NCBI RefSeq assembly: GCF_050920415.1
Contig: NZ_CP169309.1
DNA: 64,000 nucleotides
Origin: Escherichia coli
Lineage (GTDB): Bacteria > Pseudomonadota > Gammaproteobacteria > Enterobacterales > Enterobacteriaceae
Strand: one strand, 5' to 3'
The notes under the pieces are model-generated. The model was not told the DNA's origin and ran no database searches. It saw only the letters and a program-made list of their open reading frames with translations. This document shows positions 3,288-64,000 of this stretch, piece after piece; positions within the stretch are counted from its first letter, which is position 1, and each line of letters begins with the position of its first letter. The translations under genes were made by a program, and so were the position numbers.

Positions 3288-4511
3288 TCAATGCGCATGG
3301 GTAGCACTTTCAGAGCGCATCCGCTCCAGTGCGCCAGAAATATTGGCTTCAGAATCAATCAGGAACAGGCCGCTGGAAACCACCTTTTCACCTTCCGCCA
3401 GACCAGAACGTAGCGCGGTGACGCCTTGCGACGCCTGGAAAACAGCAACGCGTTTCGGTACAAAGCGCCCGTCGGCATCAACGGTAATCACCCGCTGTTC
3501 GTTACCAGTATCAATCAGTGCCTGTGACGGAATGAGCAGCATCGGTTCGCTGGCGGTGTTGAGTTGCAACCAGGCGTTCATTCCCGGTTTTAGCGCCTCG
3601 TCGGCGTTGTCGACTTCCAGACGCAGTTGTAGCGTGCGGGTCGCGGCATCCACGCCAGGTAGCAGCGTCCATTTGCGGATGGTGAGTGTTTTATCCGGTC
3701 GTGCCGGAACGGTGAGCGTAAACTGCGAGGCATCTTTCACCAGCCAGGCGATGGACTCCGGGATCGCAGCAGTGACCCACACCGGGTCCATACCCTGAAT
3801 TTTCGCTACCACGTTATCTTTGGCGATATTCATTCCCGCGCGCAGATCAAACGCAGTGATCACGCCATCAATAGGGGCTTTGAGCGTAAAGCGAGTCTGG
3901 ATTTTTTGCGTGGTAATCAGGCGGCGAATATCGGCCTCCGGCATTCCCGCCAGTCTCAGCCGCTCAAGAATGCCTTCAGTCTGGGTCGCCGTCCCGCCGG
4001 TTTCGCGCAGCAGTAAATACTCACTCTGCGCTTCCACCCAGTCGGGAATGGTCAGGTCGAGAAGCGGTGTGCCCTTTTGCACTTTATCGCCCACGGTGAG
4101 CGGATACACCTTGTCGATAAACCCGGCGGCGCGGGCCTGCACAATGGCAAACTGATACTCGTTGTAACTCACATTCGCTGGGAAACTCTGGGCAAAAGTC
4201 AGCGGCCCGCGCGTGACGGTCGCCGTTTTCACCCCCAGATTTTGCGTCTGGGTCGGGTCAATGCGCACACCAGACGCAGAACTCTCTTCATCGGCATATT
4301 TCGGCACCAGATCCATATCCATAAACGGCGATTTACCTGGTTTATCGAACCGCGTATTGGGATACATTGGGTCGTACCAGAATAAGACTTTACGTTCTGC
4401 GGTCGACGTTTTTTCTGCGGGCGGTTCAGCCTTTGCAAACCAGGTAAAACCTGCCGCAGAAATAATACCGCCCGCGATCATGCTGCCGATAATAAGCGCG
4501 ATTTTTTTCAT
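3288..4511 (-). CDS. cusB: Copper/silver efflux membrane fusion protein CusB
   Basis: 407-aa ORF, signal-anchor N-terminus, between cusF and cusA as in the known operon. Confidence 0.95.
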   Translation of the reverse strand: MKKIALIIGSMIAGGIISAAGFTWFAKAEPPAEKTSTAERKVLFWYDPMYPNTRFDKPGKSPFMDMDLVPKYADEESSASGVRIDPTQTQNLGVKTATVTRGPLTFAQSFPANVSYNEYQFAIVQARAAGFIDKVYPLTVGDKVQKGTPLLDLTIPDWVEAQSEYLLLRETGGTATQTEGILERLRLAGMPEADIRRLITTQKIQTRFTLKAPIDGVITAFDLRAGMNIAKDNVVAKIQGMDPVWVTAAIPESIAWLVKDASQFTLTVPARPDKTLTIRKWTLLPGVDAATRTLQLRLEVDNADEALKPGMNAWLQLNTASEPMLLIPSQALIDTGNEQRVITVDADGRFVPKRVAVFQASQGVTALRSGLAEGEKVVSSGLFLIDSEANISGALERMRSESATHAH

Positions 4512-48228: not shown

Positions 48229-48639
48229 ATGGCTCAGGTTGCCATTTTTAAAGAAATATTCGATCAAGTGCGAAAAGATTTAAACTGTGAATTGTTTTAT
48301 TCTGAACTAAAACGTCACAATGTCTCACATTATATTTACTATCTAGCCACAGATAATATTCACATTGTGTTAGAAAACGATAACACTGTGTTAATAAAAG
48401 GACTTAAAAAGGTTGTAAATGTTAAATTCTCAAGAAATACGCATCTTATAGAAACGTCCTTTGATAGGTTGAAATCAAGAGAAATCACATTTCAGCAATA
48501 CAGGGAAAATCTTGCTAAAGCAGGAGTTTTCCGATGGGTTACAAATATCCACGAACATAAAAGATATTACTATACCTTTGATAATTCATTACTATTTACT
48601 GAGAGCATTCAGAACACTACACAAATCTTTCCACGCTAA
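48229..48639 (+). CDS. DUF1398-like protein (ybcV-like)
   Basis: Start chosen at the ATG with GGAAGG 10 nt upstream (136 aa); the ORF-track frame opens earlier at a TTG. Same position as DLP12 ybcV. Confidence 0.55.
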
Positions 48640-53704: not shown

Positions 53705-54159
53705 TACGCCTCCTGCTTGTCGCGCAGCAGCTGGAACTCGCAGCTCTGCGGAATAGTCAGGTGGCAGCCAATATTCATCGCCCAGGCTTCAACCTTACAC
53801 AGGAAGACATACATCTCTCCGGTATCAAGATCGGAAGTATGGCGTAACGACTGGATAGTAGTGATTTCGCCGGTTACGACATCAACCAGGTCCTTGGTTT
53901 CATAACCGAGGTATGTGTGTTTGAGAGCATCTTTTACCCAAGCTGGAGTGGCGAACGTTTTACCCCTGCTGATGAGGTATTCACTGATTTCGCTGTACCA
54001 CATGTGGCTGAGTGCATTCTGGGAAAGACTGCGTTTCTCACGCCACGGTTTAAGCACCATGCGAAAGCATTTGCCTTCCTCCAGATAAGGCTGGATCTGC
54101 TGGCCGATAGCGGTGAAGTTACCACGATGCAATTTGATGCCGTCTTGTGGGAGGTTCAC
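53704..54159 (-). CDS. ybcN: YbcN (NinB-position protein)
   Basis: 151-aa ORF with GTG start, matching DLP12 YbcN length and position. Confidence 0.85.
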
Positions 54160-54189
54160 GCTTCACCTCCGCAGAGGTCAAACGCTGGA

Positions 54190-54277
54190 TGCAAAAAATC
54201 GCAGGTGCATCTCTGCATCTGTGAAGGGAGAAGAGAGTTTGGATTGTATGTGCGCATAAACGTCCCCGTTTAGCGCA
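54190..54277. repeat. 88-bp direct repeat, copy 1 (upstream of ybcN)
   Basis: About 93% identical to 56124-56211; contains hairpin GCGCATAAACG-TCCCC-GTTTAGCGC. Confidence 0.85.
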
Positions 54278-54353
54278 GAAGTCACCGGAGTTGTTCAAGC
54301 TCCAATGGCATGATTATGGCTGGTTGATTATTGGAAATCAAATGTGCTGAAAA

Positions 54354-56211: not shown

Positions 56212-56519
56212 ACCCCACCACCGGGTGTTCAGGCCGACAGTAACTATATTATTCCCTACTGATTTTTGAAAATCAAAGGTCTTTATACGTCACACGAGAG
56301 CAAATATTTCCGAAGAAGAAACCTTTCGCCTTGAAAGGATAAAGAGTTCATTTCATAAATTGAAATATTCAATAAGAATATTGCAAAAAATGAAATTATT
56401 TACTAGCGAGTCTATCTAACTGATAATTATGAAGATTGTAAGCGGTAGCAATCACCCGCATACACATTGAACAGGATTTAATACAAAACGTCTTAAATTG
56501 TCCGTAAGGAATAGCACGA

Positions 56520-58022
56520 ATGACTCAAACTCCTCTATTACTTGCAATCATATTTTTATTGGTTGTTCTTGTTCTTTATATAGCTGCAATCAAACGCATC
56601 AAAAAAATACAATTAGAATTAAGTGATAGCAATCAAAAAAATGAAGAATACAAATCTCGCTTTGCAGATTATTTTAATGTAGAAGAAGAATGTAAGAAGC
56701 TTATTGAGAAAACAGAGCAAGAATGCTCCATAATAAAAGAAGAATCCCTAAAAGTAAAAGAAAATGCCAATAATGAACTAACAAACACCATTGAAAAAAT
56801 GGATGGTATCAATAAACAAATCCAAGAGCTAAGAAGAACTTATAAAGAGAAGAAAGAAATATATGATAAACTAGTAAGGCAAATTTCTATTTATTCAGAA
56901 GATGTTGAGCTAGCCGAACTAGGATTTTACGAACCTCATTTTAATTTTGAAGATTCAGAGCAATTTAAAAACAAAATAAAATCCATCAGGGATGAACAGA
57001 AATTAATGCTGCGGGATAAAACCCACTCTGGCGCAGTATATTGTACAACCCAATGGACTGTTGAAGGCTCTCGAGCAGAGGGTAAAAAAATGACAGACAG
57101 AAATATCAGGCTAACTACTAGAGCATTTAATAATGAATGTGATGCTGCAATTAGCAATTGCACGTGGAAAAACATCACTAAAATGGAAGAACGCATCACA
57201 AAGGCATTTGAGGCCATAAATAAACTAAACGAGCAAAATCACATATATATAAACACTAAATACCTCAATAAAAAACTTGAGGAATTGTGGCTTACCCATG
57301 AATATCGTGAGCAAAAACAGAAAGAAAAAGAAGAACAGGCAGAAATAAGGGCACAAATGAGAGAGGAGGAGCGTGCACAACGAGAAATAGAAAAGGCCAT
57401 GCAAGACGCAGAGGCAGAAGAGCGCCGTTATAAAAAAGCAATTGAAGCTGCAAGAAAGGAAATGGAAAAAGTTACTGGTGACATGAAGCAGCGCCTCGAA
57501 AATCGCATTGCCGAACTAGAACAGAGTTTGTCGCAGGCTGAATCAAAGCATCAAAGAGCATTATCCATGGCACAACAAACCAAACAAGGTCATGTTTATA
57601 TTATTTCGAACATAGGTTCTTTTGGGGAGAATGTTTATAAAATAGGCATGACACGACGTCTTGATCCGCAAGACCGTGTAAATGAGCTCGGTGATGCATC
57701 TGTTCCTTTTATTTTTGATGTACATGCCATGATTTATTCGGAGGACGCTCCATCATTAGAAAAAAAACTACATGATGTCTTCGATAAAAAGAGAGTCAAT
57801 CTTGTAAATCGTAGAAAAGAGTTTTTCTATGTTACTCTGGATGAGATCAAAGAAGCTGTTAAAAAACACTCTGATTCAGAAATTGAATTTATTGAGACAG
57901 CAGTCGCAAAAGACTTTAATGAGTCATTGGCTATTCGTAATCATGAAAATAAAAAAAGTGACAACAGCAACTCATCAATTATACCTGAGCGAAAAACCCC
58001 AGAGTTTGCAGATGCAATTTAA
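56520..58022 (+). CDS. Membrane-anchored coiled-coil protein with C-terminal T5orf172 (GIY-YIG-like) domain; DUF4041-like architecture
   Basis: 500-aa ORF, AAGGA 8 nt before the ATG; N-terminal TM helix (LLLAIIFLLVVLVLYIAAI), long K/E/Q-rich coiled-coil, C-terminal block VYIISNIGSFGENVYKIGMTRRLDPQDRVNELGDASVPF...LEKKLHDVFDKKRVN. Opposite strand to all neighbours. Confidence 0.7.
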   Translation: MTQTPLLLAIIFLLVVLVLYIAAIKRIKKIQLELSDSNQKNEEYKSRFADYFNVEEECKKLIEKTEQECSIIKEESLKVKENANNELTNTIEKMDGINKQIQELRRTYKEKKEIYDKLVRQISIYSEDVELAELGFYEPHFNFEDSEQFKNKIKSIRDEQKLMLRDKTHSGAVYCTTQWTVEGSRAEGKKMTDRNIRLTTRAFNNECDAAISNCTWKNITKMEERITKAFEAINKLNEQNHIYINTKYLNKKLEELWLTHEYREQKQKEKEEQAEIRAQMREEERAQREIEKAMQDAEAEERRYKKAIEAARKEMEKVTGDMKQRLENRIAELEQSLSQAESKHQRALSMAQQTKQGHVYIISNIGSFGENVYKIGMTRRLDPQDRVNELGDASVPFIFDVHAMIYSEDAPSLEKKLHDVFDKKRVNLVNRRKEFFYVTLDEIKEAVKKHSDSEIEFIETAVAKDFNESLAIRNHENKKSDNSNSSIIPERKTPEFADAI

Positions 58023-58270
58023 TTAATTTGTAGTAGCAATAAAGCAGGCATCGTTGAGAATATTTTGTCAGCGATGCTTACTTCTCTAACAAAAACGGTG
58101 ATTACCAACGAACTAACGGACTTCAGGTAATCATAAGACAAATGGAACGACTCTCCGGTGATTAGATCCCTGCAATAACAGTAATTTTCTACTAACTGAA
58201 AAATCTTTAACTGCCGCTCCTATTTCTAAGCTGACTGCTAGATTACATGGTGTGTTACCGATGAAAACCG

Positions 58271-58573
58271 TCACAGCAAGTTTAAGTTCATATCTCCATA
58301 CACTGCCAACACTCGTTTCATCGCGGCACTCTGGCGACACTCCTTGAAAATCAGATTCGTGCTCACCTTTCCTTCCCGTTCTTCCCTGGTAGCGAACCGG
58401 TAATACACCGTTCGCCAGACCTTACCATCAACGACCAAGATTCCTGCCCGTGCCATTTTAGCCGCAGCCTGATTTATACTGGTTACTGTTGCGCCTGTTA
58501 CCGCAGCAACGTCCTGCGCACAGAAGCTCTTATGCGTCCCCAGGTAATGAATAATTGCCTCTTTGCCCGTCAT
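58271..58573 (-). CDS. ren: Ren
   Basis: 100-aa ORF matching lambda Ren (MTGKEAIIHYLGTH.SFCA.DVAA.TGATVTSINQAAAKMARAG...). Confidence 0.9.
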   Translation of the reverse strand: MTGKEAIIHYLGTHKSFCAQDVAAVTGATVTSINQAAAKMARAGILVVDGKVWRTVYYRFATREEREGKVSTNLIFKECRQSAAMKRVLAVYGDMNLNLL

Positions 58574-59271
58574 ACAGTTGCTCCTTTCAGTCCGAACTTC
58601 GCTTTGATTTCTGCGATCTTCGCCAGAGCCTGTGCACGATTTAGAGGTCTACCGCCCATGACAGGAAGTTGTTTTACTGGTTCAGGTATCGCCTCACCAC
58701 GGTTAATTCGCGCGGTCATACAAGTCAGTTCATCGGCAGCCTTGCGCCGTAATTCCGCATCAGTAAGCGCATTGGCCCGCATGTTCTGATACAGGTTGGT
58801 AACCAGCCAGTAGTGCGCGTTTGATTTCCACGGATAAGACTCTGCATCTGGATACAGGCCACGTTTCCGGCAATACTCGTAAACCATATCAACCAGCTCG
58901 CTGGCGTTTGGCAGCCCGGCGGTAACGGATGCTTCTTCCCGGCACCAGGCAACAAACTGCCCGGGTGATGGCAGGAATGGTCGATTCTGCCGACGGGCTA
59001 CGCGCATTCCTGCGTCAACCTGTTCCATCGTGGTGATCCCGTTTTCCCGGAAAGCCAGAACCCACTGGCGGCGGATTTCGTTCAGTTCGTTCTGGTCCCG
59101 GTTAGCCAGGCTCGCCGGGAAAGTTGCCAGTAACTGGCTGAACACACCATTGATGATCTGCGCTACCTGTTGTACCTGCGGCTTTTCGTCGTACTGTTCC
59201 GGCATGTTGTTGGCGATCCGGCGCATCTGCTCACGGTCAAAGTTAACCATCTGTGCGGCGATGTTTTTCAT
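58570..59271 (-). CDS. P: Replication protein P (helicase loader)
   Basis: 233-aa ORF near-identical to lambda P (MKNIAAQMVNFDREQMRRIANNMPEQYDEKPQVQQ...). Confidence 0.96.
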   Translation of the reverse strand: MKNIAAQMVNFDREQMRRIANNMPEQYDEKPQVQQVAQIINGVFSQLLATFPASLANRDQNELNEIRRQWVLAFRENGITTMEQVDAGMRVARRQNRPFLPSPGQFVAWCREEASVTAGLPNASELVDMVYEYCRKRGLYPDAESYPWKSNAHYWLVTNLYQNMRANALTDAELRRKAADELTCMTARINRGEAIPEPVKQLPVMGGRPLNRAQALAKIAEIKAKFGLKGATV

Positions 59272-60197
59272 AAATCCACCCCGTAAATCCAGTCAGTGTT
59301 TGTCAGGTCGAGTTTTGATTTTCCGGCTATCACGCCAGCCTGTTGCTTGTTACGGTTGATTTCGAGTTGGGTCCACTTGTCGCGGAGTTTGGCCGGACTT
59401 AGCACGTTACCGGACCAGAAGTTGTCCTGGCATGCCCAGCGGAACAGCACGCACATGTCGCGGTGGTTACGGCCGTCACGTTCACGCATCAGGCGGATAT
59501 CGTTAGCCCACCCTGCAAAATTCGGTTTTCTGGCTGATGGCGCGATGGTCTTCACCATGTCAAACATCCACTCTGCGGCGGTCAGGTCTTCTGCTGTCCC
59601 CCACCTGCTGCCGCTCTGAATTGCAGCATCTGGTTTCTCCACAGGAAGATCGTTTTCTGGTTGGTCAGAGGATTCGCCAGAATTCTCGGACGAAAAAGGT
59701 TTTATATTGTCTTTTGTTAGTTTGTCTTTTGTGTTTACCTGATTCGGGTAAGTGCCTTTACCTGATTTGGGTAAACTTTTCTTACCTGATTCAGGTAAAT
59801 TTACCTCTTTCAGGTAAACTTTATTTTTCTTACCTGATTCGGGTAATGTTGACCATTCACTGACCACATTATTAATGCCGATATTCCGCCCGCTCTGAAT
59901 AAAAATCCCACGCTTTACCAGAACACTTTTTGCAGCAGAACACTTGTGCGGCAATATCCCGGTCAACTCGGAAAGTTGCTCGTTGCTCACCCAATCCAGT
60001 TTTTTATTAAAGCCATATGTTTTGCGCATGACAGCCAGGAAGACCAGAAGCTGGTGCTGTGTTAATCCGGCCAGCATCACAGCTTCCAGCAACTCATTTG
60101 CAATGCGCGTATAACCATCATCGAGATCTGCCACGCGCGGCTCCTTTTGTGCCGCATCCGGCACTGGAAAATTGAATATCTCAGCAGTGTTTGCCAT
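59268..60197 (-). CDS. O: Replication initiator O (different iteron specificity from lambda)
   Basis: Start chosen at MANTAEIFNF (GGAGG 5 nt upstream); N-terminal domain lambda O-like (VADLDDGY...LRKTYG.NK), C-terminus P-interacting; iterons inside. Confidence 0.9.
   Translation of the reverse strand: MANTAEIFNFPVPDAAQKEPRVADLDDGYTRIANELLEAVMLAGLTQHQLLVFLAVMRKTYGFNKKLDWVSNEQLSELTGILPHKCSAAKSVLVKRGIFIQSGRNIGINNVVSEWSTLPESGKKNKVYLKEVNLPESGKKSLPKSGKGTYPNQVNTKDKLTKDNIKPFSSENSGESSDQPENDLPVEKPDAAIQSGSRWGTAEDLTAAEWMFDMVKTIAPSARKPNFAGWANDIRLMRERDGRNHRDMCVLFRWACQDNFWSGNVLSPAKLRDKWTQLEINRNKQQAGVIAGKSKLDLTNTDWIYGVDL
59736..59846. repeat. Replication origin iterons: 4 copies of TACCTGATTCGGGTAA spaced 23-24 bp, plus one degenerate copy
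   Basis: Copies at 59736, 59759, 59783 and 59831 with a degenerate copy near 59802; each has internal dyad symmetry; AT-rich block follows; inside the O gene as in ori-lambda. Confidence 0.85.
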
Positions 60198-60283
60198 AAT
60201 TCCTCCCGCAATGAGTGTGTTACGATTTGCACCTGAAAGTCGGTTCTGTTCCCGCAGACCGACTTTCGCCATTTCTGAACCTG

Positions 60284-60823
60284 TCATATTGCCCCCAGCA
60301 TGGTGGTCACCATCGCCATTAATGGACCAGCCAGATCCGGGTCCACACGAAACATCGACACAATACCTTCACTCATTTCCTTCAGTTTCTGGTGGCGTGG
60401 TGCGTTGAGAATGACAGCCTGTTTTGCCTCACTGAGTTCCTTTTCCATTTCAGCCAACCGAGTCATGAAGCTATCCTGCTCAACCAGGTAACCGCGATAT
60501 TCCAGCGGTAGTACCGCCAGAATTGCCGGGGTCAGTTCACGCACGTTATTTCGGTATTTTTCAGAATCGAATTTGTTATCGAGGAAGCGGAACAGCTTCT
60601 GGCGTGCACGGCTGACATCATCAGGGAAATCGATGGTGCCGTCGCCCTGCTCCCGATACTCATTCACAATGAGTGCGGCAACGACATCCTGATTATCTAC
60701 AGCCGACCAGGCGCGGACGGCATCACGGATTTTTTCGTGGCCTGGAGCTTGTTTTGTTTGAGAACGATTTATCACCGCAGTCGGAATAAATCCGCTAGTC
60801 TGTTGGTATGTAAGTGGTTGCAT
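60284..60823 (-). CDS. YdaT-like protein in the cII position
   Basis: 179-aa ORF downstream of cro-like gene; segment LTPAILAVLPLEYRGYL resembles the Rac YdaT motif IPAILAILPRELR (recalled from memory). Confidence 0.5.
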   Translation of the reverse strand: MQPLTYQQTSGFIPTAVINRSQTKQAPGHEKIRDAVRAWSAVDNQDVVAALIVNEYREQGDGTIDFPDDVSRARQKLFRFLDNKFDSEKYRNNVRELTPAILAVLPLEYRGYLVEQDSFMTRLAEMEKELSEAKQAVILNAPRHQKLKEMSEGIVSMFRVDPDLAGPLMAMVTTMLGAI

Positions 60824-60892
60824 AATTGACTCCTTTAGTTTGAATTGACTGTTAAGTTGATTGCTTATTGTTAAAGAGCGTGAAATGGAAAT

Positions 60893-61123
60893 TTAAGCTG
60901 CGTTCTTTTCGGTGTGTGGAAACAACTTCGGAAGATCCGGGCGAATCTGGTATGCCTTCACAACTCCACCAGTAGCCGTAACAATGCTGCCGACATGTTC
61001 AGGGGATACCTTTGCTTTGTTGTGAAGCCACTTATAGACGGCCTGCTGTGAAACTTCGCAGGCATCGCCTAGTTTCTTTTGTGAACCAACGATATTGATC
61101 GCTGTTTTGATTGCTGGGTTCAT
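60893..61123 (-). CDS. cro: Cro-like HTH repressor (YdaS-like)
   Basis: 76-aa ORF divergent from the repressor gene; HTH (GSQKKLGDACEVSQQAVYKW). Confidence 0.8.
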   Translation of the reverse strand: MNPAIKTAINIVGSQKKLGDACEVSQQAVYKWLHNKAKVSPEHVGSIVTATGGVVKAYQIRPDLPKLFPHTEKNAA

Positions 61124-61161
61124 AACAACCTCCGTGGTTAATCCGAATCAAGATTAAAACT

Positions 61162-61186
61162 ATGGTTGTTTTTAGTCAACAACCAT
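61162..61186. promoter_or_regulatory. Candidate right operator: inverted repeat ATGGTTGTT-N7-AACAACCAT between cro-like and repressor genes
   Basis: Perfect 9-bp inverted repeat in the 104-bp divergent intergenic region; a further GGTTGT half-site at about 61210. Confidence 0.6.
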
Positions 61187-61227
61187 TTTCGTTTGATGAA
61201 ATAAAACCTTGGTTGTACATTTGATCT

Positions 61228-61917
61228 ATGAAAACAACACTCTCAGAAAGACTTAAAGAAGCCAGATTAGCGCGAGGCCTTACACAAAAGGCGCTTGGGG
61301 ATTTGGTCGGGGTTAGCCAAGCTGCTATTCAGAAAATCGAAACAGGGAAAGCTAACCAAACAACTAAAATCGTGGAGATCGCGAACGCTTTGGGTGTGCG
61401 CGCAGAATGGTTATCTTCTGGCGTTGGAAATATGTCAGACAGTACAGTGCAACCAATACAATCAACTGTCAGCCATTCCAAATACTTCAAAATTGACGTT
61501 CTTGATATAGAAGTCAGTGCCGGGCCAGGTGTAATCAACCGTGAGTTTGTAGAAGTTCTACGCTCGGTTGAGTACTCGTTTGACGATGCTCGTCACATGT
61601 TCGATGGCAGGAAGGCGGAAAATATCCGCATCATTAACGTGCGAGGTGACAGCATGTCAGGGACGATCGAACCAGGTGACCTGCTGTTCGTTGATATCAC
61701 TGTTAAATCTTTCGACGGTGATGGCATCTATGCGTTTCTGTACGACGACACTGCCCATGTAAAACGTCTTCAAATGATGAAGGATAAGCTGCTGGTTATC
61801 TCTGATAACAAGAGCTACTCGCCGTGGGACCCGATCGAGAAAGACGAGATGAACCGGGTGTTCATATTCGGTAAGGTCATTGGAAGCATGCCGCAGACGT
61901 ACAGGAAGCATGGTTAA
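61228..61917 (+). CDS. cI: Prophage repressor, LexA/CI-like with S24 peptidase domain
   Basis: 229-aa ORF; N-terminal HTH (LTQKALGDLVGVSQAAIQKIETGK), C-terminal autocleavage domain (GDSM Ser, VKR Lys); not lambda immunity. Confidence 0.9.
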   Translation: MKTTLSERLKEARLARGLTQKALGDLVGVSQAAIQKIETGKANQTTKIVEIANALGVRAEWLSSGVGNMSDSTVQPIQSTVSHSKYFKIDVLDIEVSAGPGVINREFVEVLRSVEYSFDDARHMFDGRKAENIRIINVRGDSMSGTIEPGDLLFVDITVKSFDGDGIYAFLYDDTAHVKRLQMMKDKLLVISDNKSYSPWDPIEKDEMNRVFIFGKVIGSMPQTYRKHG

Positions 61918-62146
61918 TTTATCTACGACTTAAGGGAGCGAAGGTTAAGGTTTATACCACTCGGATTAGATATTGCACTAAATTCTCTATAAGAACGCCA
62001 AATCTGTTTGCATATTTCAGTAAATATTCTCGTTGTTAGCTGAGATTTGTTGCTACTGTCAGCAAAATGTCCCCCTATCTCGTAGCGGTTTTTATTTCGA
62101 ATCATTATGTTAAGATGTTTCTGATTATAATGAATGGAAACATAAA

Positions 62147-62527
62147 ATGAGAAAAATCCTAATCGCTGCCATGATGGCATCTGTATTGGCTGGGTGTGCT
62201 TCTTCAGGCAACCAGCAACTCAAAAATGAAACTGAAATTAGTGTCCAGTCTAAACTTCAGGAAGGTAAAACAACCAAGAATGAGGTTAAATCTTACTTTG
62301 GTTCTCCTGATGCTGTTTCATATACTGACAGTGGAAACGAGATCTGGAAGTACGCCTTTGCAAAAGTAAAAGTTAATGGCACCACTTTTATTCCATTCTA
62401 TGGATTATTCCATAATGGAACGAACGGTACGAAAAAAGAACTTACTATTCTTTTTAACGATGACACGATTAAGAAATACACAATGTCAGAAACCCAAATA
62501 AACTCGAAATCAGGTTGGGCTGACTGA
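62147..62527 (+). CDS. Outer-membrane lipoprotein, BamE/SmpA-OmlA-like, in the rex position
   Basis: 126-aa ORF with lipobox (VLAGCASS); KNEVKSYFGSPDAVSYTDSGNEIWKYAF...LTILFNDDTIKKYT resembles the BamE fold family. Confidence 0.6.
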   Translation: MRKILIAAMMASVLAGCASSGNQQLKNETEISVQSKLQEGKTTKNEVKSYFGSPDAVSYTDSGNEIWKYAFAKVKVNGTTFIPFYGLFHNGTNGTKKELTILFNDDTIKKYTMSETQINSKSGWAD

Positions 62528-62534
62528 TAATCAT

Positions 62535-62562
62535 ACCCGGCAACCGCGCCGGGTTTTCTTTT
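62535..62562 (+). terminator. Intrinsic terminator after the repressor-lipoprotein unit
   Basis: Stem CCCGGC / GCCGGG with 6-nt loop followed by TTTTCTTTT, 8 nt after the lipoprotein stop. Confidence 0.65.
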
Positions 62563-62687
62563 CCTCCCCCTCATAACTCATACCGTCCAAAAAACCACCA
62601 CACCTCACTTCAGTTATCGCTATGCGATGCAAGTCACAAAATAAATCCATCCTAAATACAACCAGTTATATTTAAAACAACCGACAA

Positions 62688-62717
62688 AACAACTTTTGTT
62701 GTTGACGATAAAACAAC
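62688..62717. promoter_or_regulatory. Candidate left operator: AACAAC-TTTT-GTTGTT-N8-AACAAC
   Basis: Same GTTGTT/AACAAC half-sites as the right operator, on the other side of the repressor gene. Confidence 0.4.
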
Positions 62718-62923
62718 TATAGTTTTAAATAAATTCATCGCAACGACACAACGATACGGTAACCACCTGTTTCACCGTGGCGATGACCGCTTAGATCCGC
62801 AGTTTGAATTTCAGCAGGCTTCGGGGAGTGCGAGGGGTGAAACGGACGCGTGAACGTCGGTGTGACCAGCTGAAATCAACACAACACTTTATACCTCAGT
62901 CGCTTCAACGAGGCGGCTTAGTT

Positions 62924-63214
62924 ATGACAACCGGCGGCCATCCACCGCCTGAATACGCGCAGAAGTCTCTATATGTTCAGCAGCCCAGCTTACGGGCAGG
63001 AGTTTTTATGGTTCATCAACATTACGGAACGCAGACCGTTAATCGCGGTGCGGTCATGCCAGGAATGCTGGTCAAACACAAAGATGGTACCTGGACTGCA
63101 TCAGCTAATTTACGCGGACGGCTTTATCTGCATCGCGGCATCGAGCGCACTTATACCCGTGATTTGCTCGTGGAAGTTTTTCTCGACGGACGCGGTAACG
63201 GCCTCAATCACTAA
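62924..63214 (+). CDS. Hypothetical early-left-operon protein (97 aa from ATG; frame open upstream to 62804)
   Basis: ATG at 62924 with GAGG upstream; upstream in-frame extension encodes an Arg-rich stretch (RGVKRTRERR) but has only TTG/GTG starts. Confidence 0.3.
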
Positions 63215-63289
63215 TCCCCTTTCCTGTTTTCCTAATCAGCCTGGCATTTCGCGGGCGATATTTTCACAGCCATTTTCAGGAGTTCAGCC

Positions 63290-63586
63290 ATGAACGCTTA
63301 TTACATTCAGGATCGTCTTGAGGCTCAGAGCTGGGCGCGTCACTACCAGCAGATCGCCCGTGAAGAGAAAGAGGCAGAACTGGCAGACGACATGGAAAAA
63401 GGCCTGCCCCAGCACCTGTTTGAATCGCTATGCATCGATCATTTGCAACGCCACGGGGCCAGCAAAAAAGCCATTACCCGTGCGTTTGATGACGATGTTG
63501 AGTTTCAGGAGCGCATGGCAGAACACATCCGGTACATGGTTGAAACCATTGCTCACCACCAGGTTGATATTGATTCAGAGGTATAA
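63290..63586 (+). CDS. gam: Gam (RecBCD inhibitor), short form GamS
   Basis: 98-aa ORF matching lambda GamS ([44 protein letters not shown]...). Confidence 0.95.
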
Positions 63587-63591
63587 AACGG

Positions 63592-64000
63592 ATGAGTACA
63601 GCACTCGCAACGCTGGCAGGGAAGCTGGCTGAACGTGTCGGCATGGATTCTGTCGACCCACAGGAACTGATCACCACTCTTCGCCAGACGGCATTTAAAG
63701 GTGATGCCAGCGATGCGCAGTTCATCGCATTGTTGATCGTCGCCAACCAGTACGGCCTTAATCCGTGGACGAAAGAAATTTACGCCTTCCCTGATAAGCA
63801 GAACGGCATCGTTCCGGTGGTGGGCGTTGATGGCTGGTCCCGCATCATCAATGAAAACCAGCAGTTTGATGGTATGGACTTTGAGCAGGACAATGAATCC
63901 TGCACATGCCGGATTTACCGCAAGGACCGCAATCATCCGATCTGCGTTACCGAGTGGATGGATGAATGCCGCCGCGAACCATTCAAAACCCGCGAAGGCA
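63592..64000 (+). CDS. bet: Bet (Red-beta single-strand annealing protein), 5' partial, runs off window
   Basis: Hand-translated MSTALATLAGKLAERVGMDSVDPQELITTLRQTAFKGDASDAQFIALLIVANQYGLNPWTKEIYAFPDKQNG... matches lambda Bet; not in ORF track because no stop lies within the window. Confidence 0.95.
   Translation, partial: MSTALATLAGKLAERVGMDSVDPQELITTLRQTAFKGDASDAQFIALLIVANQYGLNPWTKEIYAFPDKQNGIVPVVGVDGWSRIINENQQFDGMDFEQDNESCTCRIYRKDRNHPICVTEWMDECRREPFKTREG

Follow-up and report, generated by a model that had tools for sequence, protein, structure and literature searches.

Do two small phage genes whose Pfam families are still named "Bacterial toxin YdaT" and "Bacterial toxin YdaS" encode a toxin–antitoxin pair, or do they govern the choice between lysis and lysogeny? 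This question is raised by positions 60284–61227 of a 64-kb stretch of Escherichia coli DNA (hereafter, the window), which take in two small regulators and a cI–cro control region. The original prediction held that this immunity region uses a Cro-like/YdaT-like pair of the Rac type in place of lambda cro/cII and regarded its role as open. We conclude that the locus is very probably the early-right regulatory module of a functional lambdoid, PhiR26_1-like phage, with the 179-residue YdaT-family protein as its CII equivalent. This protein shares family and fold with studied YdaT proteins, occupies the genetic context of cII, and is nearly identical to the products of annotated cII genes. The pair itself carries little weight, being a correctly annotated and common module; public databases still mislabel it as a "toxin," and relabeling it as a Cro/CII analogue would be worthwhile. 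What is new is limited to two leads from sequence comparison, a putative intragenic pRE and candidate YdaT boxes on nin-region promoters.

Gene order and source phage

Both regulators are encoded on the (−) strand. The first, a 76-residue open reading frame at 60893–61123 in the ORF listing, is a Cro-like regulator of the YdaS family. After a 69-bp spacer follows the 179-residue, YdaT-family reading frame (60284–60823, from the ORF listing and sequence), with a Shine–Dalgarno sequence, AAGGAG, 6 nt before its ATG at 60823. Next on the same strand are the replication initiator O (59268–60287; Pfam Phage_rep_O, E = 9e-34), whose start and the ydaT stop share 4 nt (ATGA), the helicase loader P (58570–59271; Pfam Phage_lambda_P, E = 2e-61), and a Ren-like gene (58271–58573). 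A 229-residue CI-type repressor is encoded divergently on the (+) strand (61228–61917). The pair is flanked by a lambda-like CI repressor on one side and O/P on the other, and the YdaT-family gene occupies the slot typical of its family: it follows a Cro-like gene, diverges from the repressor gene, and leads into the replication genes. The reading frames lie where the original prediction had put them, and the gene after the cro-like frame encodes, as it had said, a 179-residue protein of the YdaT family rather than one of the lambda CII type. The 104 bp between cI and cro (61124–61227) contain a perfect 9-bp inverted repeat, ATGGTTGTT-N7-AACAACCAT, at 61162–61186, which a repeat search recovered along with related TGGTTGT copies. 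To judge from its position between divergent cI and cro, this region probably serves as the OR analogue.

Positions 58200–62000 are 100% identical to Escherichia phage PhiR26_1 (PV340555.1) and 95–97% identical to about fifteen other cultured coliphages, including 4A7, Lambda_4C10, 1W, 3W, D2, Perceval, and several PhiR phages. The PhiR26_1 record annotates, in order, cI and then Cro, cII, O, P, and Ren, while RefSeq labels the 179-residue protein "toxin YdaT domain-containing protein." The 944-bp stretch 60284–61227 was matched in 2,223 of 5,426 complete E. coli genomes, mostly at 95–99% identity, and protein searches returned thousands of homologues from Escherichia, Klebsiella, Citrobacter, Enterobacter, and related genera. 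The gene pair is a common, already described phi80-type lysis–lysogeny switch, and its members already carry the names Cro and cII in PhiR26_1.

Protein families and predicted fold

The 179-residue protein matched the Pfam profile YdaT_toxin (PF06254) with E = 4.3e-30 and 104.5 bits (cutoff, 21) and PHROG 163, "CII-like transcriptional activator," with E = 1.4e-66 over residues 17–179. The 76-residue protein matched YdaS_toxin (PF15943; E = 6.6e-17, 61.5 bits, cutoff 30), with weaker, sub-threshold matches to P22_Cro and HTH_3, and fell into PHROG 35, transcriptional repressor. Its profile match, its helix-turn-helix (HTH), and its place as the first gene of the rightward operon are those of a YdaS/Cro-like protein. 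Both Pfam scores are far above chance. The YdaT_toxin search had been named beforehand as the decisive check, and given the match, the observation of a Cro-like/YdaT-like pair instead of lambda cro/cII stands, with the YdaS_toxin match and the PHROG assignments in agreement. NCBIfam gave no model for the 179-residue protein, and its Pfam search gave no match to the lambda CII family (Phage_CII) at E ≤ 0.01; at 179 residues versus about 97, and with a different fold, it falls outside that family. The divergently encoded repressor combines an N-terminal HTH (HTH_3, E = 5e-13) with a C-terminal autopeptidase domain (Peptidase_S24, E = 1e-18) and belongs to PHROGs 4 and 6201, CI-like repressor. 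CI-type repressors owe their SOS cleavability to the S24 domain, and this domain combination therefore marks a lambda-like CI of the SOS-cleavable kind.

A PDB sequence search with the 179-residue protein retrieved only the YdaT structures 8bt1 and 3c4r, with E about 1e-3. An AF2 model built on a 27-sequence family alignment (mean pLDDT, 82) predicted a disordered segment at residues 1–25, helices at 29–43, 45–59, 70–82, 88–104, and 107–113, a long helix at 119–138, and beyond it two extra, confidently modeled C-terminal helices within 143–178. Foldseek comparison of the model with the PDB again gave 8bt1 and 3c4r, with a probability of 1.0 and a TM score of 0.67 on target length, and nothing else significant. 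The predicted architecture is that of the family: an all-alpha DNA-binding domain of the HTH (POU-like) type with a long helix after it. The recognition helix corresponds to residues 70–82 (SRARQKLFRFLD; CP-933P counterpart, ALARNTQKIFRWLD), in which R72, Q75, K76, F78, R79, L81, and D82 align with R53, Q56, K57, F59, R60, L62, and D63 of CP-933P YdaT. R79, at one of just three columns that do not vary across the 27 aligned sequences, aligns with arginines R60 of CP-933P and R57 of Rac YdaT. This recognition-helix arginine is needed for DNA binding in both of those studied homologues. Taken together, the profiles and the model identify the 179-residue protein as a probable YdaT-family, phi80-type CII-like transcription factor.

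Relationship to phi80, CP-933P, Rac, and lambda

In a translated search of phage records, the nearest characterized relative was phi80 CII (PHI80_49, "CII decision making protein"), which is of about equal length and 66% identical over all 179 residues; proteins annotated "CII protein" in mEp237, HK639, and HK225 are 51–66% identical. As here, phi80 cII follows a Cro-like gene and precedes O/P-like replication genes, and phi80 shares both the N-terminal extension and the conserved DNA block GCGATGATAAACCGCGCTCAA discussed below. The two phages differ in that an oop-like M3 RNA separates phi80 cII from its O-like gene, where the present genes overlap by 4 nt, and in that the phi80 Cro-like and CI proteins are essentially unrelated to those encoded here, so immunity specificity differs. 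While phi80 cII encodes 180 residues in the 2012 record JX871397, the 1988 sequence X13065 meets a stop when read from the extended start and, aligned by eye with family sequences, appears to be missing a few bases, which is probably why the older annotation gives phi80 CII 132 residues.

The original prediction called the pair Rac-type, a description that holds in part. Rac YdaS/YdaT belong to the same two Pfam families, in the same order and divergent from a repressor gene, but identity is low (34% over 96 residues for YdaT and 30% over 63 residues for YdaS), RacR is not a CI/S24-type repressor like the one encoded here, and phi80 CII is the closer relative; Rac is also defective and without a nin region. 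On these comparisons, "phi80-type" appears to be the better label. CP-933P YdaT (8bt1; also 3c4r) shares Pfam family, fold, gene slot, and recognition-helix residues, including the essential arginine, with the 179-residue protein; identity is only about 26–28% in the structural alignment. The 179-residue protein has in addition a disordered N terminus of 25–28 residues and the two C-terminal helices (143–178), and CP-933P is a defective prophage whose partner repressor, PaaR2, has no peptidase domain. Lambda CII occupies the same slot, and the logic of its control is probably the same (an unstable-activator-type pRE control, with the site in the gene's own first codons), but it has no sequence or fold relationship with the 179-residue protein. 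The DNA sites of lambda CII and YdaT differ as well: the asymmetric lambda CII tetramer recognizes the direct repeat TTGC-N6-TTGC, and the 222-symmetric YdaT an inverted one (PMC9986795).

Published function and the toxin label

The role of the YdaS/YdaT family is no longer as open as the original prediction proposed, since work on homologues has largely answered it in favor of Cro/CII analogues and against a toxin–antitoxin pair (PMC5917428, PMC8630535, PMC9986795, PMC11879457). Jobling (2018) argued from gene context that Rac YdaS/YdaT are the Cro/CII counterparts (PMC5917428). Jurenas (2021) reported that CP-933P YdaT, stated to be homologous to phi80 CII, turns on an otherwise silent reverse promoter, PRE933P (PMC8630535). 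In the structure described by Prolic-Kalinsek (2023), YdaT forms a 222-symmetric tetramer, for which TTGATT-N6-AATCAA is the main site; defective CP-933P contains only one strong site, though the tetramer is able to bind two (PMC9986795). In Rac, Wons (2025) located the YdaT box, ATGATTCATGAAAATCAA, across the start codon of ydaT and found the reverse promoter for racR activated up to 29-fold; Rac and CP-933P YdaT cross-recognize each other's boxes despite 30% identity (PMC11879457).

If the toxin label were right, the locus would encode a type II toxin–antitoxin system or a repressor-controlled toxin pair, in which the 179-residue protein poisons the host and the 76-residue protein or CI neutralizes it. 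The Pfam names accord with this, as does the toxicity of Rac ydaS/ydaT on derepression or overexpression (PMC5700377, PMC5700373), and expression of Rac YdaT causes filamentation, its toxicity running through activation of host rcsA (PMC11879457). Yet the names go back to a computational prediction for which a 2010 study found no confirmation, and overproduced lambda CII is toxic too (reviewed and cited, respectively, in PMC5917428), whereas CP-933P YdaT showed no toxicity and its pair is not a toxin–antitoxin system (PMC8630535). At the present locus, the predicted fold is an HTH DNA-binding domain with an oligomerization helix, as in a transcription factor, PADLOC gave no match, and the genes occupy the cro/cII slot in a family of phages that can be induced and form plaques. 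Fold, PADLOC result, and homologue literature all speak against a type II system, and we regard the toxin reading in either form as highly improbable; growth toxicity, if any, would more plausibly be a by-product of regulator overexpression than a toxin–antitoxin function.

For a Cro/CII pair, the homologues suggest the following course. After infection, pR would transcribe the Cro-like repressor, the phi80-type CII, and then O/P. The 179-residue protein would, by homology, tetramerize through its long helix and bind inverted repeats resembling TTGATT-N6-AATCAA, for which 60758–60775, 54324–54341, and 56259–56276 are candidate sites. It would then activate an antisense promoter reading back through cro into cI and so establish lysogeny; such activation would make it the functional equivalent of lambda CII on a different fold.

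A candidate pRE analogue within the 5′ end of ydaT

Where such a promoter might lie was approached with 42 loci fetched from species-representative genomes, using a 9-sequence alignment for the locus search. Across these loci, the YdaT homologue is preceded by genes that bear no relationship to one another, right up to the ATG. Given that the upstream cro is exchanged to this point, any cis-elements that travel with ydaT must lie inside it, as in lambda and Rac. Codons 1–22 show a same-residue codon identity of 0.73, compared with 0.52 in the rest of ydaT. Among 58 unique 5′ ends, nucleotides 27, 28, 50–53, 63, and 64 are invariant and nucleotide 30 is 97% conserved; nucleotide 23 is likewise invariant across the family. 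This invariance persists despite residue variety, with up to six residues at codon 9 and four at codon 10. Codons 17, 20, and 21 encode three to five different amino acids, and still nucleotides 50–53 (TGAT) and 63–64 (TC) are 100% conserved. Ile18 is encoded by ATA, which enterobacteria use rarely, in 31 of 36 sequences.

The conserved TGAT...TC core coincides with a putative YdaT box, GTGATA-AATCGT-TCTCAA, on the (−) strand at 60758–60775 (nucleotides 49–66, codons 17–22). Its family pattern, xTGATA-N6-nnTCAA, shares its TGA-N10-TCA register with the mapped YdaT box (PMC9986795, PMC11879457), and some lineages carry ATGATA-N6-AATCAA or ATGATT-N6-AATCGC, although the present copy agrees with the mapped box at only 8 of 12 specified positions. 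The second block may be an antisense −10 element, TAGTCT, on the (+) strand at 60796–60801 (family pattern, GnTAnnnT): its invariant positions are those of a −10 hexamer, and a conserved G stands at −14. Such an element would place the start of cI-directed antisense transcription near 60808 and the center of the box near −41.5, a class-II activator geometry. Thus arranged, codons 1–22 would hold a degenerate YdaT box and an antisense −10-like element, which fits a pRE analogue whose conserved sites would be embedded in the translated yet disordered N-terminal extension.

The homologues offer both precedent and difference. Rac YdaT likewise has its box at the gene's own 5′ end, from which it drives the reverse promoter for the repressor gene, but that box overlaps the ATG, whereas the candidate here lies at +49 to +66, and it is about 190 bp from PracR4, unlike the −41.5 proposed here (PMC11879457). 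CP-933P and Rac have their YdaT boxes at the cro–ydaT junction; at the present junction, a scan for the canonical box gave a best match with three mismatches, at 60857. Direct repeats in the spacer (TTGACT/TTGACT/TTGATT) were considered as a site and rejected for want of conservation, as relatives have unrelated spacers. A generic sigma-70 promoter scan of both strands of 60200–61400 returned nothing convincing and did not call the proposed antisense promoter, as expected of an activator-dependent promoter, though this lends it no support. The 5′ synonymous constraint can alternatively reflect the demands of translation initiation or conserved junctions at which phage modules recombine.

YdaT-box palindromes on nin-region promoters

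A scan of the window for TTGATT-N6-AATCAA, which recovered the mapped Rac YdaT box as a control, gave one perfect match, at 54324–54341, and two matches with one mismatch, at 56259–56276 and 48461–48478. The perfect palindrome, TTGATTTCCAATAATCAA, forms the −35 element and spacer of a (−)-strand nin-region promoter, TTGATT-17-CATAAT (54313–54341), upstream of a 33-residue orf33-like reading frame (54156–54257) and a NinB-like gene. The one-mismatch box at 56259–56276, TTGATTTTCAAAAATCAG, is placed in the same way within a second (−)-strand copy, TTGATT-17-AATAAT (56248–56276), upstream of a 53-residue orf33-like reading frame and facing away from PD-Lambda-1. The promoter cassette is thus present in duplicate, with a GC-rich hairpin and then a small orf33-like reading frame downstream of each copy; the homologous promoter of phage 82 was already annotated in 1996 (X92588).

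At the 42 genome loci we counted 18 boxes that deviate by no more than one mismatch, where about 1 was expected; 15 of them sit downstream of the YdaT gene at a distance of 2.9–6.9 kb. About 100 IMG/VR contigs share invariant half-sites around a variable 6-nt spacer, and phi80 carries a symmetric variant, TTGATA-N6-TATCAA, at the corresponding nin promoter. Counting palindromes in promoter context on the same strand within 8 kb downstream, we found them at 30 of 48 YdaT-type viral loci, 9 of 33 genome loci, and 0 of 47 lambda-CII loci, the last being at least 98% identical to lambda CII and therefore not independent. Five contigs with a diverged lambda-type CII (50–69% identity) carry the palindromic promoter, and neighboring modules are linked genetically. 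The int neighborhood of PhiR26_1 contained no box, and our literature search returned no paper tying the YdaT box to the nin region.

As a lead, phi80-type CII may also act on the nin promoters, by repression, roadblock, or looping. Could this be its main function? The 179-residue protein would then chiefly repress rightward transcription, act as a roadblock to it, or control host genes, rather than activate cI, and the perfect boxes on nin promoters or host promoters such as that of rcsA would be its principal targets. The only perfect or near-perfect boxes cited for this reading in the window (54324 and 56259) overlap a nin-promoter −35 element, where binding is expected to occlude RNA polymerase, and the palindromic promoters accompany YdaT-type rather than lambda-CII genes in the viral counts above. 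Rac YdaT also regulates host rcsA (PMC11879457), and the crystallography paper terms YdaT a repressor (PMC9986795). Each of the two studied homologues nevertheless switches on a reverse promoter driving the repressor gene (PMC8630535, PMC11879457). The phi80 annotation gives cII a decision-making role, and the DNA-level constraint in the 5′ end of ydaT fits a cis-linked pRE. The two roles are, moreover, compatible: lambda CII, too, dampens Q, through paQ. We consider it unlikely that repression or host-gene control is the protein's main role, and retain the CII equivalent that activates cI.

A CII equivalent could still reach further than cI. We suggest tentatively, and with more doubt than confidence, that phi80-type CII has a wider, unreported regulon in functional phages, comprising the intragenic pRE and the nin-promoter palindromes jointly. 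If so, a pRE analogue in the first 22 codons would explain why the N-terminal extension is translated but disordered. Binding to the nin palindromes upstream of orf33/ybcN...Q would downregulate or roadblock transcription toward Q, a protein-based counterpart of lambda paQ, and the second DNA-binding face of the tetramer could bridge the nin sites to the pRE box. The nin palindromes would then supply the "missing second operator" to which the crystallographers drew attention in defective CP-933P. Confirmation would provide a testable CII target map for phi80-type phages, tie the lysogeny decision to Q expression, and explain why a two-faced tetramer has a single strong site in the defective prophages studied.

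A boxA-like sequence in the cro–ydaT spacer

The cro–ydaT spacer also contains, on the (−) strand at 60868–60880, the position of lambda nutR, a sequence CGCTCTTTAACAA that we take to be boxA-like, with a presumed function, from its resemblance to the boxA consensus; it is the sole perfect match in the window. With it, the nucleotides of codons 16–20 could be read as encoding a boxB-like hairpin, GCGAU-GAUAA-AUCGC, so that the conserved 5′ block of ydaT would belong to a nutR antitermination site and not to a pRE. The boxA-like sequence lies 90 nt upstream of the putative hairpin, whose 5-bp stem and GAUAA pentaloop are possible in many YdaT family members and which resembles P22 boxB. Against this, no more than 33 of 71 unique sequences allow all five pairs, pair 49–57 being an A–C mismatch in 25, and the distance between the two elements is about tenfold that of lambda nutR. 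The hairpin at nucleotides 46–60 was rejected on these pair counts and is largely refuted, which leaves the nutR reading scarcely credible. An Rfam search of 58000–64000 at E ≤ 1 matched no family. Downstream of pL, a boxA scan for a nutL twin and a search for an N-like gene found neither; the reading frame after pL encodes Kil (PHROG 294) with an additional upstream part.

YdaT boxes in nin-region promoters

Within the nin region, a duplicated promoter cassette (54313-54341 and 56248-56276, minus strand) carries the YdaT box, TTGATT-N6-AATCAA, a site mapped for the YdaT of CP-933P (PMC9986795). The box is formed by the -35 element together with the spacer; one copy matches perfectly and the other has a single mismatch. 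Both cassettes are followed downstream by a GC-rich hairpin and then an orf33-like small ORF. Among viral loci searched on the same strand up to 8 kb downstream, nin promoters with a YdaT box accompanied YdaT-type cII genes in 30 of 48, and none was found in 47 lambda-CII loci, a set at least 98% identical to lambda CII whose members are not independent.

The YdaT-type protein and its gene in relatives

The C-terminal portion of the YdaT-type protein (residues 139-179, 60284-60410) distinguishes its 179-aa subfamily from the crystallised YdaTs (8bt1, 3c4r). Structure modeling confidently predicts two additional C-terminal helices in this subfamily, which also conserves a hydrophobic tail, GPLMxMVTxMLG; the crystallised proteins lack both. 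One possibility is that these helices or the tail serve as a degradation signal, as does the C-terminal FtsH tag of lambda CII.

The first annotation of phi80 cII as 132 rather than 180 aa probably arose because the 1988 early-region sequence (X13065, L166 in our locus set, 3606-3750) seems to be a few bases shorter than its counterparts in the family and in the 2012 genome.

In many relatives (loci L006-L011, L021, L035-L043, and phi80 L166 at 3570-3590), the cro-like gene upstream has a GCCGCC-(4-5 nt)-GGCGGC hairpin over its stop codon, just 5′ of the YdaT-type gene. This hairpin, which may be a boxB of nutR or else a terminator, has no counterpart in the window.

A putative antitermination signal and accessory genes

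A perfect boxA-like sequence, CGCTCTTTAACAA (60868-60880, minus strand), occupies the cro-cII spacer, the nutR position. Searches near pL for an N-like gene, a boxB, and a nutL partner found none of them. The ORF after pL encodes Kil (62804-63214, plus strand; PHROG 294 match over residues 60-136), and the unassigned 59 codons upstream of the Kil part include an Arg-rich KRTRERR resembling N-protein RNA-binding motifs.

A PD-Lambda-1 anti-phage defence gene (56520-58022, plus strand; PADLOC E=2e-198), encoding a 500-aa DUF4041 and T5orf172 protein, separates ren from the nin region and runs on the strand opposite to both. Among cultured phages, this insertion and the 300 bp upstream of it were found only in Escherichia phage PhiR26_1. 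Directly 3′ of cI, in the rexAB position, a 126-aa lipoprotein-like gene (62147-62527, plus strand; PHROG 3135, with a weak BamE/SmpA-like match) is probably a moron expressed in the lysogen.
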